Below are positions 31,238 to 62,863 of a stretch of 64,000 nt of DNA, one piece after another. This DNA is from Candidatus Bathyarchaeia archaeon (lineage in GTDB: Archaea; Thermoproteota; Bathyarchaeia; Bathyarchaeales; Bathycorpusculaceae): contig JBEKKK010000004.1 in assembly GCA_050010755.1 (NCBI GenBank), positions 64,001 to 128,000 of the forward strand, given 5' to 3'. Each line of letters opens with the position of its first letter. Within the stretch, counting starts at the first letter, position 1. The notes under the pieces are model-generated. The model ran no database searches and was not told the origin of the DNA. It saw nothing but the letters and a program-made list of their open reading frames with translations. Position numbers and translations under genes: made by a program.

Positions 31238-31336
31238 TGGCGGGCCCGCCGGGAATTGAACCCGGGACCCCCGGATTTCCATGCTTAGCACAGAGCTTAA
31301 AAGTCCGGTGCTCTGTCCTTACTGAGCTACGGGCCC
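31238..31336 (-). tRNA. tRNA-Lys(TTT) with a 21-nt intron near 37/38 (31297-31277), encoded CCA
   Basis: GGGCCCG/CGGGCCC acceptor; CCGGA-CTTTTA|intron|A-TCCGG; T-loop GGTTCAATTCC. Confidence 0.92.
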
Positions 31337-59475: not shown

Positions 59476-59585
59476 GTCCGTCTAAGGCGCCTCGACATGA
59501 TGTCGTTCGGAGTGACAAAAAAACCTATCGCAGAAAGCCATAACGCTTTAAGCAGGAGGACACTAAAGCAAATTTGCGTGATTAA

Positions 59586-60077
59586 TTGAACAGCAACTTA
59601 CATCCCTATGTAGTTTTTCTTCCTTCTGAACATAAGGTCAAGGTTCTGAGCGCCATCTTCGGTTCAAAAGCGGCTGTCGACATACTGAAATTCTCGCTCA
59701 AGCAGGGCATTTCGAACAAGATTTACCAGGGCGACCTCGTGAGGAAATTAGAATTTTCGAACAAGACCGTTATCGAAAACCTGAAGTCGCTGACCAAGCT
59801 TGGAATATTAACCGAGAAAATGGAGAAAACCGAGAAGAATGGCCGTATCACGTGGGTCAAAGCCTATCAGCTCGAGAGTGCGGGAAAATGGTTTGCACTC
59901 TTGTTAGCTGAAGAAAGAGAACTGTCCGACAAGGAGAAGGCGGAAATATTCCAAAGCCTCTTCAGAACCTACCTGCGATGGTCGAAGGATCTCTCCAAGA
60001 AACTGAACATAGATCTCAAAACGCTGGAAAGAGTCTTCACAGAAGAAATGCAGCGAACACAGGCGCGTGAGGCTTGA
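59586..60077 (+). CDS. Winged-helix putative transcription regulator
   Basis: YQGDLVRKLEFSNKTVIENLKSLTKLGIL. Confidence 0.75.
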   Translation: MNSNLHPYVVFLPSEHKVKVLSAIFGSKAAVDILKFSLKQGISNKIYQGDLVRKLEFSNKTVIENLKSLTKLGILTEKMEKTEKNGRITWVKAYQLESAGKWFALLLAEERELSDKEKAEIFQSLFRTYLRWSKDLSKKLNIDLKTLERVFTEEMQRTQAREA

Positions 60078-60601
60078 AGGTGATTGCCATCGGTGTAGTG
60101 GGCGGAAAAAAAACAGGAAAGACCACTACTATTGAGATTTTAACGAGGGAACTCACAAAGAGAGGCTACAAGATTGCAGTGGCCAAACACATTCCGGAGC
60201 CTAATTTTACGCTGGATACAGAACGGAAGGATACATGGCGCTTCGTTCAATCAGGTGCCAAGACGGTGGTCGCCGCATCGGCAGGCGAGATAGCAACCAT
60301 AGAGAAGACTCGCGCAAACCTCTCCCTGAAAGAGATTCTTAAGAGATGTAGAGGCAACGACATAGTTTTCCTAGAAGGCTTCAGAAAACTCTTGGCTGAG
60401 AACAGAAACATACACAAGATTGTCGTTGCAGAATCCGCCCGAGATATCAAAGAAGCGAGTGAGATGTTTATGCCCGTACTGGTCTTCACAGGACCCTACT
60501 CGCCCGAGGAACCTCACCCTGAAATCCCGTTCATAGACGTACTTAAACATGGCGAAGAAATAGCTGATCTCGTGGAAAAAATAGTCGGAAAAAAGGGGTA
60601 A
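60074..60601 (+). CDS. mobB: Molybdopterin-guanine dinucleotide biosynthesis protein B
   Basis: GGKKTGKTT, AKH, KDTWRF, FLEGFR. Confidence 0.9.
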   Translation: MKVIAIGVVGGKKTGKTTTIEILTRELTKRGYKIAVAKHIPEPNFTLDTERKDTWRFVQSGAKTVVAASAGEIATIEKTRANLSLKEILKRCRGNDIVFLEGFRKLLAENRNIHKIVVAESARDIKEASEMFMPVLVFTGPYSPEEPHPEIPFIDVLKHGEEIADLVEKIVGKKG

Positions 60602-60604
60602 CAT

Positions 60605-60728
60605 GAGTCATGTTGACGCTAGGCTGTGGGGCTTGGAGATATTATCTGAGGGGAGATGGGAGAAAGGAGATATTCCTAAAACGTAAGGTAACTCTCCAAA
60701 CCTTTCCACCCTGCGTTTCAACATGCTC
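60605..60728 (-). ncRNA. Long hairpin with bulge-helix-bulge motif downstream of cdvC
   Basis: GAG-CATGTTGA-AA-CGCAGG-GTGG-AAA-GGTTTGGAGA ... TCTCCAAGCC-CCAC-AGC-CTAGCG-TCAACATG-A-CTC. Confidence 0.6.
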
Positions 60729-60754
60729 CTGTCACGCGACTTGTATTCATCCTC

Positions 60755-61933
60755 CTAGAGCGCTTTGAAGGCTTCAAACCATCTGTTGTAGAGCGCCAGC
60801 ATGTCGAGAGACACACTGGGTTTTCTGTCTTCCAGTATCTGTCTGAAGTCGTCCATCGTTAGAGGTCTCGGTTTGGCCTGTTTGTCTTCTGCCTTTCCGG
60901 ACTCGAAGAATTCGCCTATGAGTTTCAGTTGTGCCGATTGGTTGACGTCTCTGATGTCGCTTCCTGAAAATCCTTCTGAAAGCCGTGCTAGCTCGTGCAA
61001 GTCGACGTCAGGCGCCAGCTGTAAGTTGGTCGTGTAGAGTTTGAACATCATCAATCGTGTGTGATGGTCTGGAAGAGGTACGAGAATGCGTTTCTGGAAC
61101 CTCCTTATAAATGCCCAGTCCAAGTCCCAAGGCTTGTTCGTGGCACCGATAACGTAGACGTGCAGGTTCTTGCCCTTGTCCATGATTCCGTCCATCTCTT
61201 TCAAAAACTGGTTCCTTACCCTGATTTCGCCGCCGACTTCGTTCGCGTGTTTGCCCATCATCGAGTCTAATTCGTCGATGAACACTATTGATGGCTTGCC
61301 TTCCAAAGCCGATTTCCTGACCGAGCCGAAGAGTTTGGCCACGTTCTGTTCACCCTCACCGAGCCACTTGGACATCACCGTAGCAGCGTCGATAGACAGA
61401 AAGTTTGCGTCAATCTCTGTGGCGACCGCAGCGGCCAGTAACGTTTTGCCGCAGCCTGGCGGTCCGAACAGCAAGATTCCTCTCGGCCATCCAAGCGGGA
61501 AAAGATCTGGCCTCTGAACCGGGTACACTATAGCCTCTTTCACGGCTTTCTTGGCGGGGTCAAGCCCGACGACTCCGTCCCATTTCACGTTCGGTTTTTC
61601 TATCATTATGAGTTCTTCGTAGGTTGATTTTCCGCCCTCGGTCTTTGTTTCGCCGTCAGCGCCGTTGCATTTGGTTTCGGGCCTCGGCTCGAAGGATGTG
61701 ACGGCGCCCTGTATTGCTTTGATTCGTTCTTGGTAGGCGATTGCTCTTTGTATGTAAACCTTGTTCAGACTGTATTCTGGGTAGAGTTGAACGAGTTGCA
61801 GGAGGCTTTCTATGGCTTTTTGGTACATGGTTATGGCCATGCCTTTCGCCCCCTGCTTATCGAGGCGAACTGCCTCTAGGGCGAAGTTCGTCGCGGACTT
61901 CTCAAGCTCTTGAGACGCGCTCATAACTTTCAT
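60755..61933 (-). CDS. cdvC: Vps4-like AAA ATPase
   Basis: N-terminal MIT domain, GPPGCGKT, SKWLGE, FIDELD, TNKPW, RRFQKR. Confidence 0.95.
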   Translation of the reverse strand: MKVMSASQELEKSATNFALEAVRLDKQGAKGMAITMYQKAIESLLQLVQLYPEYSLNKVYIQRAIAYQERIKAIQGAVTSFEPRPETKCNGADGETKTEGGKSTYEELIMIEKPNVKWDGVVGLDPAKKAVKEAIVYPVQRPDLFPLGWPRGILLFGPPGCGKTLLAAAVATEIDANFLSIDAATVMSKWLGEGEQNVAKLFGSVRKSALEGKPSIVFIDELDSMMGKHANEVGGEIRVRNQFLKEMDGIMDKGKNLHVYVIGATNKPWDLDWAFIRRFQKRILVPLPDHHTRLMMFKLYTTNLQLAPDVDLHELARLSEGFSGSDIRDVNQSAQLKLIGEFFESGKAEDKQAKPRPLTMDDFRQILEDRKPSVSLDMLALYNRWFEAFKAL

Positions 61934-62829
61934 TCTCCAGTTTTCAATTCGATTTTTATTTTTCCTTTTGACCCTAGACTTTCTAGGGCTTTCTCGATAT
62001 CCTCGTTCGAGGTTTCCAAGTCAACTGAGCAACGTTCCATATCGATTTGACCGTTGCTCTTCTTGACGTATTCGAGAATGGCATCCTCCAATTGAGGATT
62101 TTCGAGTTTCAAGGAGATTTCCTTGATTTCGGATTTCTTATAAGAAATGAGGGTTTGGGAAGAATCTCTTCCGGATTCTTCCGAGGTTTTGCTTATCTTC
62201 TTTTCTGAAGAGTTAGACGATAACGCAAGCATTTCTTCCAACGTGGCCCGCTCATTTTCCTGGATTTTCTGAGTAACGGGTGGTTCGGGCAGGTTTTGGG
62301 AGATTCTTTGTTCCAGAAAGCTTGAGACTTGGCTTAGCACTTCTTCGCCGCCTGGCGTCTTTCGGTCTACAGGAATGACTGATTCATCAGCTGTTATCTT
62401 TGCTGAATAGAGCGTTTCGCTTATGGTGTCGTTGACTCTGCTCAGTTCGGATGAAACGTCTGGCAAGAATTGAAAGAGCTCTTGTGATACATTCTGGAGA
62501 AGCTTCAGAGCGGGTTTTAGATCGATTACTATATCGCTCAGTTCCTTAATTGTCTCGAGTCTGAGGATTACTCGCTCGATGGCCAGCTCTACGCTGTGAA
62601 GAAAGCTGATGATCTTGCGAATTTCGGCGATTTCGTTAGCGTAGATTGCCGCACGATCTTTGTTCTTTGCCGTGACAGCTCCGACGCATGTTTGGAAAAG
62701 GATTTTATCTTTTTCTTTAAGTCTGTAACCAGCCTGTTGAAGTTTGCACTGTTGGACTCTGAGAACTCGTATTGATTTGAATGCTGTTTCACGAAGAGGT
62801 GGAGGGCTCGAACGGAAAAATCCTTTGAT
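61930..62829 (-). CDS. cdvB: ESCRT-III CdvB with C-terminal winged helix; probable ATC start
   Basis: Frame open from 62847; Snf7 core RAAIYANEIAEIRK...ERVILRLET lies upstream of the track's TTG start; wH-like C-terminus. Confidence 0.85.
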   Translation of the reverse strand: MKGFFRSSPPPLRETAFKSIRVLRVQQCKLQQAGYRLKEKDKILFQTCVGAVTAKNKDRAAIYANEIAEIRKIISFLHSVELAIERVILRLETIKELSDIVIDLKPALKLLQNVSQELFQFLPDVSSELSRVNDTISETLYSAKITADESVIPVDRKTPGGEEVLSQVSSFLEQRISQNLPEPPVTQKIQENERATLEEMLALSSNSSEKKISKTSEESGRDSSQTLISYKKSEIKEISLKLENPQLEDAILEYVKKSNGQIDMERCSVDLETSNEDIEKALESLGSKGKIKIELKTGE

Positions 62830-62863
62830 GACCCTTCCCTCCGCCCGCTATTCTCGTTCCAGT

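Follow-up and report, generated by a model that had tools for sequence, protein, structure and literature searches.

The question raised by this locus is whether a hairpin that follows an archaeal cell-division gene is cut out of the messenger as a small RNA by the enzymes that splice transfer RNAs. The locus lies in a 64,000-nucleotide (nt) stretch of a Candidatus Bathyarchaeia archaeon genome (contig JBEKKK010000004.1, positions 64,001 to 128,000), here called the window in its whole length, where the 153-nt intergenic gap between cdvC and a MobB-family gene contains a 28-bp hairpin on the minus strand. A first-pass annotation of the sequence had read this hairpin as a motif of the bulge-helix-bulge (BHB) type, the substrate of the archaeal splicing endonuclease EndA, and had predicted the release of an 80-nt, possibly circular RNA whose loop resembles an anti-Shine-Dalgarno (anti-SD) sequence. 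We re-read the sequence on the minus strand, and the helices, bulges, coordinates and 80-nt product were found as claimed there. The parts of the element, all on the minus strand and in window coordinates, are as follows.

60718–60725 with 60609–60616: outermost helix of 8 bp, CATGTTGA paired with TCAACATG.
Between the outermost and the outer helix: 2-nt AA bulge.
60710–60715 with 60617–60622: outer helix of 6 bp, CGCAGG paired with CTAGCG (CUAGCG as RNA), including one A-A mismatch and one G-U pair.
60706–60709 with 60626–60629: central helix of 4 bp, GTGG (GUGG as RNA) paired with CCAC.
60703–60705: 5' bulge AAA, lying 3' of its central-helix strand.
60623–60625: 3' bulge AGC, lying 3' of its central-helix strand.
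60693–60702 with 60630–60639: inner helix of 10 bp, GGTTTGGAGA paired with TCTCCAAGCC (GGUUUGGAGA and UCUCCAAGCC when written as RNA, 5' and 3' strand, respectively).
60640–60692: apical loop of 53 nt, with a variable AU-rich part that contains a U-run (60678–60681), followed by a pyrimidine motif.
60648–60670: pyrimidine loop motif, TCTCCTTTCTCCCATCTCCCCTC, which is UCUCCUUUCUCCCAUCUCCCCUC as RNA.
60704/60703 and 60624/60623: predicted EndA cuts in the 5' and the 3' bulge, placed from BHB rules and from the BHBs of tRNA introns.
60624–60703: predicted excised RNA of 80 nt, deduced from the geometry.

When the fold was checked on both strands, the minus strand gave a minimum free energy (MFE) of -45.6 kcal/mol (z -4.36), and none of 200 shuffled sequences was equally good; the plus strand folded about as well (-46.0 kcal/mol, z -3.05). 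The outermost 8-bp helix, CATGTTGA/TCAACATG, was seen only in the window's genus and in close relatives. The element was present as a single copy in its genome by blastn, and a repeat or mobile element was thereby ruled out. We also noticed a related strain co-occurring in sequencing run X8, which matched a G002-like sequence and differed between window positions 60550 and 60920 at 26 positions and by two insertions; in the RNA strand of this strain the 3' bulge AGC is changed to AAC, together with the last outer-helix pair beside the central helix.

To what extent the element is shared was examined in relatives, for which we use handles of our own (G for genomes, C for contigs, L for loci and f for families). 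In a blastn comparison with 40 relatives, a core at window positions 60622–60711, which nearly coincides with the BHB plus its interior, was matched in 17 of 24 same-family genomes. A covariance model (R1) built on 18 sequences gave one strong match in 139 of 151 same-family genomes, and all 78 same-family genomes with at least 90% completeness and at most 5% contamination carried the element. In a class-wide sample, R1 found the element in families f1 (15/15), f6 (4/4), f7 (3/5) and f2 (1/1), all of one order, and gave no match in the 127 other genomes of that sample, those of the other orders sampled included. One f7 genome missed by the model (G040) has a diverged copy, as judged by eye, and the element was not seen in the cdvC 3' flanks inspected in three f10/f11 genomes. 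At all 60 loci the gene immediately upstream, on the same strand, is a cdvC homolog, which ends 4–61 nt before the central helix; at two of them (L050 and L052) the outer helix follows the cdvC stop codon by 0–2 nt and the central helix by 4–6 nt. A next gene was called at 54 loci and is convergent at 53 of these; it is most often MobB-like, with at least five other kinds. Because the downstream gene varies while cdvC is constant, the tie of the element is to cdvC.

Conservation and covariation downstream of cdvC, whose absence the first-pass annotation had named among the outcomes that would refute its reading, were both clearly found. The main structure alignment comprised 61 rows fitted to the model, one reverse-strand row among them, and 91.7% of its cells were paired, as compared with 30–55% when the 3' partner columns were slid. 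Double-sided changes occurred at 16 of 20 modelled pairs, and none of 500 shuffles reached any of the five measures. An independent MAFFT alignment of 18 sequences gave 88.9% paired cells with double changes at 8 pairs, and RNAalifold recovered the central and inner helices. The central helix was 4 bp long in all 60 homologs, with 99.6% of cells paired and with the compensatory variants GCGG/CCGC, UCGG/CCGA and UUGG/CCAA. The 5' bulge was likewise 3 nt in 60/60 homologs (AAA in 55, AUA in 2, and AAU, AAG and AGA in 1 each). In the 10-bp inner helix, 97.7% of cells were paired and 8 of 10 pairs showed double-sided changes, distant families having helices made of other letters (GAUUUGAAGA/UCUUCAAUUC, GGUUCAGAGA/UCUCUGAACC and GGUUUAGAGC/GCUCUAGACC). 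Every one of the six outer-helix pairs (helix 1) showed double-sided changes, with 76% of cells paired. Constraining the core to the BHB cost a median of 0.15 kcal/mol over the MFE. Taken together, these comparisons firmly support an order-wide, cdvC-linked structured RNA in Bathyarchaeia that appears not to have been described before. The geometry and orientation of its covariation-kept three-helix hairpin appear to be those of an archaeal BHB motif.

Several other identities were tried for the element and rejected. Rfam 15 gave no relevant covariance-model match for window positions 59500–62000 at E up to 10, and no match for 11 loci with homologs and paralogs at E up to 0.1; a known RNA family was ruled out on these grounds. 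An H/ACA guide RNA carries an ACA box 3' of its lower stem, and a pseudouridylation pocket and a K-turn in its upper stem; the ACA of the element shares bases with the central helix and does not survive in the variants CCGC-AG, CCGA-AAA and CCAA-AAA, and there is no conserved upper stem. Neither box C (RUGAUGA) nor box D (CUGA) occurs in the conserved alignment blocks, which disposes of a C/D box small RNA. A K-turn consists of a 3-nt bulge followed by tandem G-A/A-G pairs, and in the element the bulge is followed by two never-varying G-C pairs (alignment columns 25–154 and 26–153), so that an L7Ae site of this kind was dropped. As for a small protein-coding gene, the best frame was open in only 29 of 60 copies, and the lengths of 71–89 nt fell into all residues modulo 3. 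Two alternative folds were discarded as well: the pairing of GGAAAGG in the bulge region with the loop CCUUUCU is lost where the bulge is AUA or the loop CUCCCUU, and the pairing of GGAGA of the inner helix with the loop is not kept in family f6.

The likeness to a splicing substrate was assessed against the tRNA introns of the same genome. In the tRNA-Lys and tRNA-Met introns the 5' strand runs outer helix, central helix, bulge and inner helix, and the 3' strand runs inner helix, central helix, bulge and outer helix; they have the bulges UAA and AAA, and correct exon ends result when each bulge is cut past its second base. The cdvC-tail element has the same orientation. The genome encodes RtcB and two EndA-domain open reading frames (ORFs) of 190 and 195 codons (in the regions 567607–567864 and 1160659–1160913 of its contig C1) and, because two EndA paralogs are encoded, its splicing endonuclease is probably of the heterotetramer type. 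Relaxed BHB forms are within reach of such (alpha-beta)2 enzymes, according to PMC5829648. About half of the genome's 34 tRNAs were called with introns by ARAGORN, several at non-canonical positions. The tRNA-Lys(UUU) gene lies within the window (31238–31336, minus strand), where ARAGORN by default called a 'tRNA-Stop (tta)' and, with introns allowed, a tRNA-Lys with a 21-nt intron; the BHB of this intron has the central helix CUUU/AUGG and the bulges UAA and AAA.

The loop of the element is a second conserved feature. Its core, CUCC(U/C)UUCUC (the CUCCUUUCUC motif), varied little or not at all among the 60 copies, and a 13-mer of the motif occurred 73 times in 41 genomes, as compared with 5 times for a reversed control. 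We found at least six other hairpins in the window's genome, all intergenic and in varied contexts, with the same U-run and CUCUCCUUUCUCCCC loop. They lie outside the window, on contig C1 of the same genome (G000), at the following positions.

1081421–1081529, plus strand: paralogous hairpin.
965785–965889, plus strand: paralogous hairpin.
About 966885, plus strand: paralogous hairpin.
1190677–1190778, minus strand: paralogous hairpin.
About 921654, plus strand: paralogous hairpin.
About 979590, minus strand: paralogous hairpin.

Two of these hairpins lie behind a AAACTTAAAAG box. Paralogs in other genomes were taken from the weaker, second-tier matches of the model, 15 of which were fetched. 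In seven of the 15, a long inner helix and an AAA or AGA bulge accompanied a helix that again measured exactly 4 bp, namely GCAG/CUGC (three times), GAGG/CCUU, CUGG/CCAG, UGGG/CCCA and GCGG/CCGC. Others were perfect stems without bulges, carrying the same loop behind a conserved TTTAAAAG-type box, which sits upstream in the CU-sense orientation. The CU-sense strand was chosen as the functional one because of the orientation of this box and the co-orientation of the element with cdvC. The loop thus appears, from its recurrence, to be the functional module of a multi-copy CU-loop RNA family that has no Rfam match. At one locus (L120, G066:C3:48878–49298) the same scaffold, CUGG-AAA-GGUUUAGAG ... 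CUCUAAACC-CCAG, carries a different loop without the pyrimidine motif, and scaffold and loop may be separable modules. A second conserved block, approximately CTTATAGCTTGTGGAAGAATCTTCTAT, was seen about 20–40 nt past perfect-stem paralogs in several genera (G000 C1:1081529, L112, L117 and L122); it could be part of the RNA or of a neighbouring promoter.

Our tentative answer, which we favour while giving it somewhat less than an even chance, is that the element is a small RNA embedded in the 3' untranslated region (3' UTR) of cdvC and processed by EndA. According to this proposal, the 3' untranslated tail of the cdvC mRNA would contain the precursor of a small RNA. A splicing endonuclease of the heterotetramer type, formed by the two EndA paralogs, would cut in both bulges, and RtcB would join the ends into an RNA of about 71–89 nt (80 nt here), possibly circular, leaving a cdvC mRNA that ends in a short stem with a 7-nt loop. 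Such processing by EndA and RtcB is plausible as a model. More speculatively, the exposed pyrimidine loop might pair with purine-rich GGAG-type tracts, for example in extended SD regions, and might thereby damp translation of its targets and tie it to cdvC expression.

The following observations weigh against this proposal. The part of the BHB geometry that stood in all 60 homologs was the 4-bp helix and the 3-nt 5' bulge; the other part, a strict 3-nt 3' bulge ((0,3) geometry) beside the best contiguous outer helix, was found in only 32 of 60. The remaining 28 had a 1x4 internal loop (6 copies, families f6 and f7), a 2-nt bulge (5 copies, the window's genus and f2), a 4-nt bulge (3 copies) or another arrangement or weak helix (14 copies). 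The 3' side would therefore be better described as a 2–4-nt bulge or a small internal loop and, since it is loose, only the 5' cut would be canonical in some genomes. The window itself belongs here: a 2-nt alternative pairing, already suspected in the first-pass annotation, was energetically its best register, the 2-nt 3' bulge (AG) being 0.2 kcal/mol better than the 3-nt bulge. The outer helix had 76% of cells paired, as compared with 98–99% for the other helices, and was almost absent in L016, L069, L076, L071 and L018. The 5' bulge and its flanks, GUGGAAAGG, were near-invariant in sequence, more so than EndA is known to need, which suggests a sequence-specific binder. The statement that the G-U pairs work only on the sense strand was correct for the window and did not extend to the family, in which 23 distinct helix versions showed 9 G-U pairs versus 8 A-C mismatches and hence no strand preference. 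In 39 of 60 copies the loop contains, upstream of the conserved motif, a T-run of five or more, which is a typical archaeal termination signal and might stop some transcripts short of the 3' half. As for the RNA itself, none of the 20 sequencing runs listed with the locus is on record as RNA. The back-splice junction, sought as a 26-mer of the family consensus, gave no match in metagenome contigs, and neither did a degenerate cdvC tail with the exon-exon junction, in a collection that may be DNA only and had no positive control; the DNA contigs of four runs over the locus contained strain variants only and no joints.

The main rival explanation is that the element is a cis-acting 3'-UTR element that EndA does not cut, with the AAA bulge and the pyrimidine loop forming a protein site and the likeness to a BHB being incidental. 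Candidate proteins would be a KH-domain factor, such as aNusA or aCPSF1/FttA, or, bound to the U-run, an Sm-like protein; lying between two convergent genes, the cdvC transcript would owe its 3' end, its stability or its termination to such a protein. The strict linkage to the cdvC stop codon at 60/60 loci and the convergent arrangement at 53/54 agree with this explanation, as do the T-runs, which were found not only in the loop (39/60) but also within 80 nt downstream at 44 of 60 loci, versus none of 60 control stretches inside cdvC. In addition, GUGGAAAGG and the loop motif are invariant beyond the needs of pairing, and the outer helix and the 3' bulge are weakly constrained. Shibata and colleagues reportedly observed in 2007 that archaeal NusA binds CU-rich RNA near terminators. 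The relevant part of PMC8116511 describes aNusA as an RNA-binding protein of unclear function. However, the hairpins with the same loop stand alone behind promoter-like boxes and not at gene ends, which fits an RNA product better than a terminator, and the length of the central helix is held at exactly 4 bp in all of its eight sequence versions, those of paralogs among them, as a measuring enzyme such as EndA would impose. Moreover, it is established that archaeal intrinsic termination requires no hairpin. We regard a protein site as possible but rather unlikely.

The EndA proposal can also be drawn more boldly, so that EndA and RtcB would carve a circular anti-SD RNA from the cdvC tail, the founding and universally kept member of the CU-loop family, which would tune the translation of strongly SD-led, largely secreted or envelope proteins or would engage the processing stem of the pre-16S rRNA. 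As regards the pairing of the loop with SD regions, which both forms of the proposal include, the anti-SD-like loop claimed in the first-pass annotation held up in so far as GGAGGGAAGG is indeed present before cdvB (62834–62843), and the cdvB start region ranked at the 5th percentile when 1959 ORF starts were compared with the loop. On the other hand, the match extends over 5–6 nt only and involves a generic CUCC tract, and the other two cdv start regions were average (29th percentile for cdvA, 45th for cdvC); as only cdvB scored well, the cdv starts were dropped as privileged targets, which counts against the proposal. Sixteen exact copies of an 11-mer of the loop were found in the genome, about nine of them being, in our own reading, the reverse complement of GGAGAAAGGAG-type SD regions, and GGAGAAAGGAG was found before several genes for secreted proteins. 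Among the 104 sites within one mismatch of the complement, 30 precede a start codon with an ORF of at least 60 codons, and about half of these 30 ORFs have signal-peptide-like N-termini, as judged by eye. Because any CUCC tract is complementary to any SD sequence, the target idea is unspecific, which is a further point against it. We consider the anti-SD function of the loop speculative, and the bolder scheme as a whole unlikely.

Another way to account for the loop is a linear small RNA of the CU-loop family, which would not be circularised and would be taken from the cdvC transcript or be initiated at an internal promoter, through termination at T-runs or through other nucleases, with the stem as a scaffold. 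The perfect-stem paralogs, which carry the same loop without bulges, indicate that the loop can function without a BHB; GGAGG and an AT-rich stretch precede the cdvC-linked copy and two paralogs in this genome at similar spacing, and T-runs lie downstream. However, at L050 and L052 the outer helix begins 0–2 nt past the stop codon, so that no room is left for a promoter outside cdvC, and the invariant 3-nt bulge and 4-bp helix would remain unexplained. A linear product of this kind seems improbable to us.

Much less probable still is that the loop, CCUUUCUCC, targets the 3' trailer of the pre-16S rRNA, GGAGAAAGG, and modulates rRNA processing. The pre-16S processing stem of relatives (L092–L108 and L252–L263) is itself a BHB, with the leader CUCC-AAA-UCCAG and the trailer CUGGA-GGAG-AAA-GG, and GGAGAAAGG is the 3' half of this BHB (central helix, AAA bulge and outer helix), complementary to CCUUUCUCC and in many genomes perfectly so. 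Watson-Crick complementarity of at least 8 nt was found in 17 of 27 genomes, in each of which no more than a fraction of 0.07 of the shuffled trailers did equally well. The trailer variant GAGCAAGG co-occurred with the loop variant CUCCCUU in 7/7 genomes, and the other trailers (18 of the GAGAAAG type and two further variants) occurred with the standard loop in 20/20. However, the changed positions of the two variants are not opposite one another when trailer and loop are paired, the complementarity is only 5–7 nt in 10 of the 27 genomes, the co-occurrence may reflect a single clade, and both partners are generic GGAG/CUCC tracts. We treat this pairing as a lead only. The loop was also tried as a copy of the 16S 3' end and this was rejected, as the 16S of relatives ends in ...GGAUCACCUCC-UA without the UUUCUCC extension; the window's own assembly does not contain that end. 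Finally, it is very unlikely that the other strand is the functional one, giving a purine-rich RNA from the mobB side, or that the element encodes a short peptide. Although the plus strand folds equally well, the wobble counts are neutral and a 36-codon ORF from an ATG at 60724 (38 codons from an in-frame start) overlaps the element, it is cdvC that stays constant from genome to genome and the downstream gene that changes, the bulges of the opposite strand would lie 5' of the central helix and would not form a BHB, the promoter-like boxes of the paralogs are on the CU-sense side, and the indels are not multiples of three, with compensatory changes that alter the putative residues.

We return to the proposal of an EndA-processed RNA and compare it with known systems. 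As in archaeal hBHBh' substrates of EndA (tRNA introns and pre-16S/23S stems), the bulges of the element are on opposite strands, each 3' of a 4-bp helix and with helices flanking; they are A-rich, as in the tRNA-Lys and tRNA-Met introns of the genome and the pre-16S stem of relatives, and after excision the exons would form a stem with a 7-nt loop, as in a tRNA. In contrast to these substrates, the element lies in the 3' tail of an mRNA, its conserved piece is the excised part and not the exons, and nearly half of its copies have a bulge of 2–4 nt or a 1x4 loop on the 3' side. The element is akin both to a BHB intron and to a small RNA derived from a 3' UTR, but its membership in the class of EndA substrates is to be regarded as unproven. 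The portion of PMC7714728 concerned with mRNA introns describes a 46-nt BHB intron in the 5' UTR of Haloferax HVO_1309, which gives a circular RNA and is cut by recombinant enzyme in vitro, and names the cbf5 mRNA intron as the only other non-tRNA, non-rRNA BHB known. The element resembles these introns, that of cbf5 being crenarchaeal, in that a BHB is found in an mRNA outside tRNA and rRNA. Whereas they are located in a coding region or a 5' UTR, the element follows a stop codon and is a predicted substrate; its loop motif is invariant, some of its paralogs lack a BHB, and it is conserved across an order.

A further comparison is with known regulatory RNAs. In bacteria, a small RNA may likewise be embedded past the stop codon of a protein gene. 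RsaE/RoxS of Firmicutes, as well as sRNA41 of Methanosarcina, mask ribosome-binding sites with C/U-rich loops. The apparent likeness is in the unpaired pyrimidine tract of a hairpin loop complementary to GGAG-type SD sequences; these RNAs have no sequence or Rfam relation to the element. To our knowledge, there is no archaeal precedent for a processed small RNA derived from a 3' UTR. Our literature search gave no account of a BHB in a 3' UTR, of cdvC-associated RNA elements or of any non-coding RNA from Bathyarchaeia. Among the bacterial examples, GlnZ is released from the 3' UTR of the glnA mRNA by endonucleolytic processing, as described in PMC9731577. While the bacterial RNAs use RNase E with Hfq or ProQ, the nuclease proposed here is the tRNA-splicing endonuclease, and the product is possibly circular.

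The features surrounding the element in the window are listed below.

60755–61933, minus strand: cdvC, encoding a Vps4-like AAA ATPase (Pfam AAA, MIT and Vps4_C).
60751–60755, minus strand: GGAGG, overlapping the final base of the cdvC stop codon.
60589–60594 and 60576–60581, minus strand: two T6 runs downstream of the hairpin, inside the convergent mobB coding region.
60074–60601, plus strand and convergent: MobB-family gene (Pfam MobB), ending 3–7 nt from the foot of the hairpin and not part of the element.

The T6 runs at 60576–60594 are candidate archaeal terminators of the cdvC transcript. By eye, GGAGG was seen 0–6 nt past the cdvC stop codon in most same-family relatives (loci L009–L026), within a spacer that is otherwise not conserved and with no downstream ORF to serve; it is missing in L050 and L052, where the outer helix begins at the cdvC stop codon. 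This GGAGG could keep a terminating ribosome in place, form pairs with the CUCC loop, or be part of a promoter-like box (GGAGG-N5-AT-rich) that two paralogous hairpins also have. Upstream, a strong GGAGGGAAGG precedes a cdvB-like frame (61930–62843, minus strand), which stays open between about 62830 and 61930 and has no in-frame ATG, GTG or TTG until 62466, and ORF calling gave two ORFs of 67 and 178 amino acids in different frames; a non-canonical start (possibly ATC at 62827) or a sequencing or assembly issue may be the reason. In an f11 genome that lacks the element (L127, G184:C12), a tRNA-like gene was noticed by eye about 65 nt past the cdvC stop codon.

If the proposal is true, the role of EndA would be extended to regulatory RNAs from messenger tails, an archaeal counterpart of the bacterial small RNAs derived from 3' UTRs; in the bolder and unlikely form of the proposal, the element would be the first BHB substrate in a 3' UTR and the first regulatory RNA made by EndA, and division-gene expression would be coupled to ribosome function. 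The element offers clear junction sequences to be sought in metatranscriptomes. Even if the EndA idea fails, what remains is a new and well-supported family of RNAs, whose structure is defined and whose loop is invariant, fit for RNA family libraries. The element also offers a first way to study post-transcriptional control around the Cdv/ESCRT division operon of this abundant and mostly uncultured lineage.

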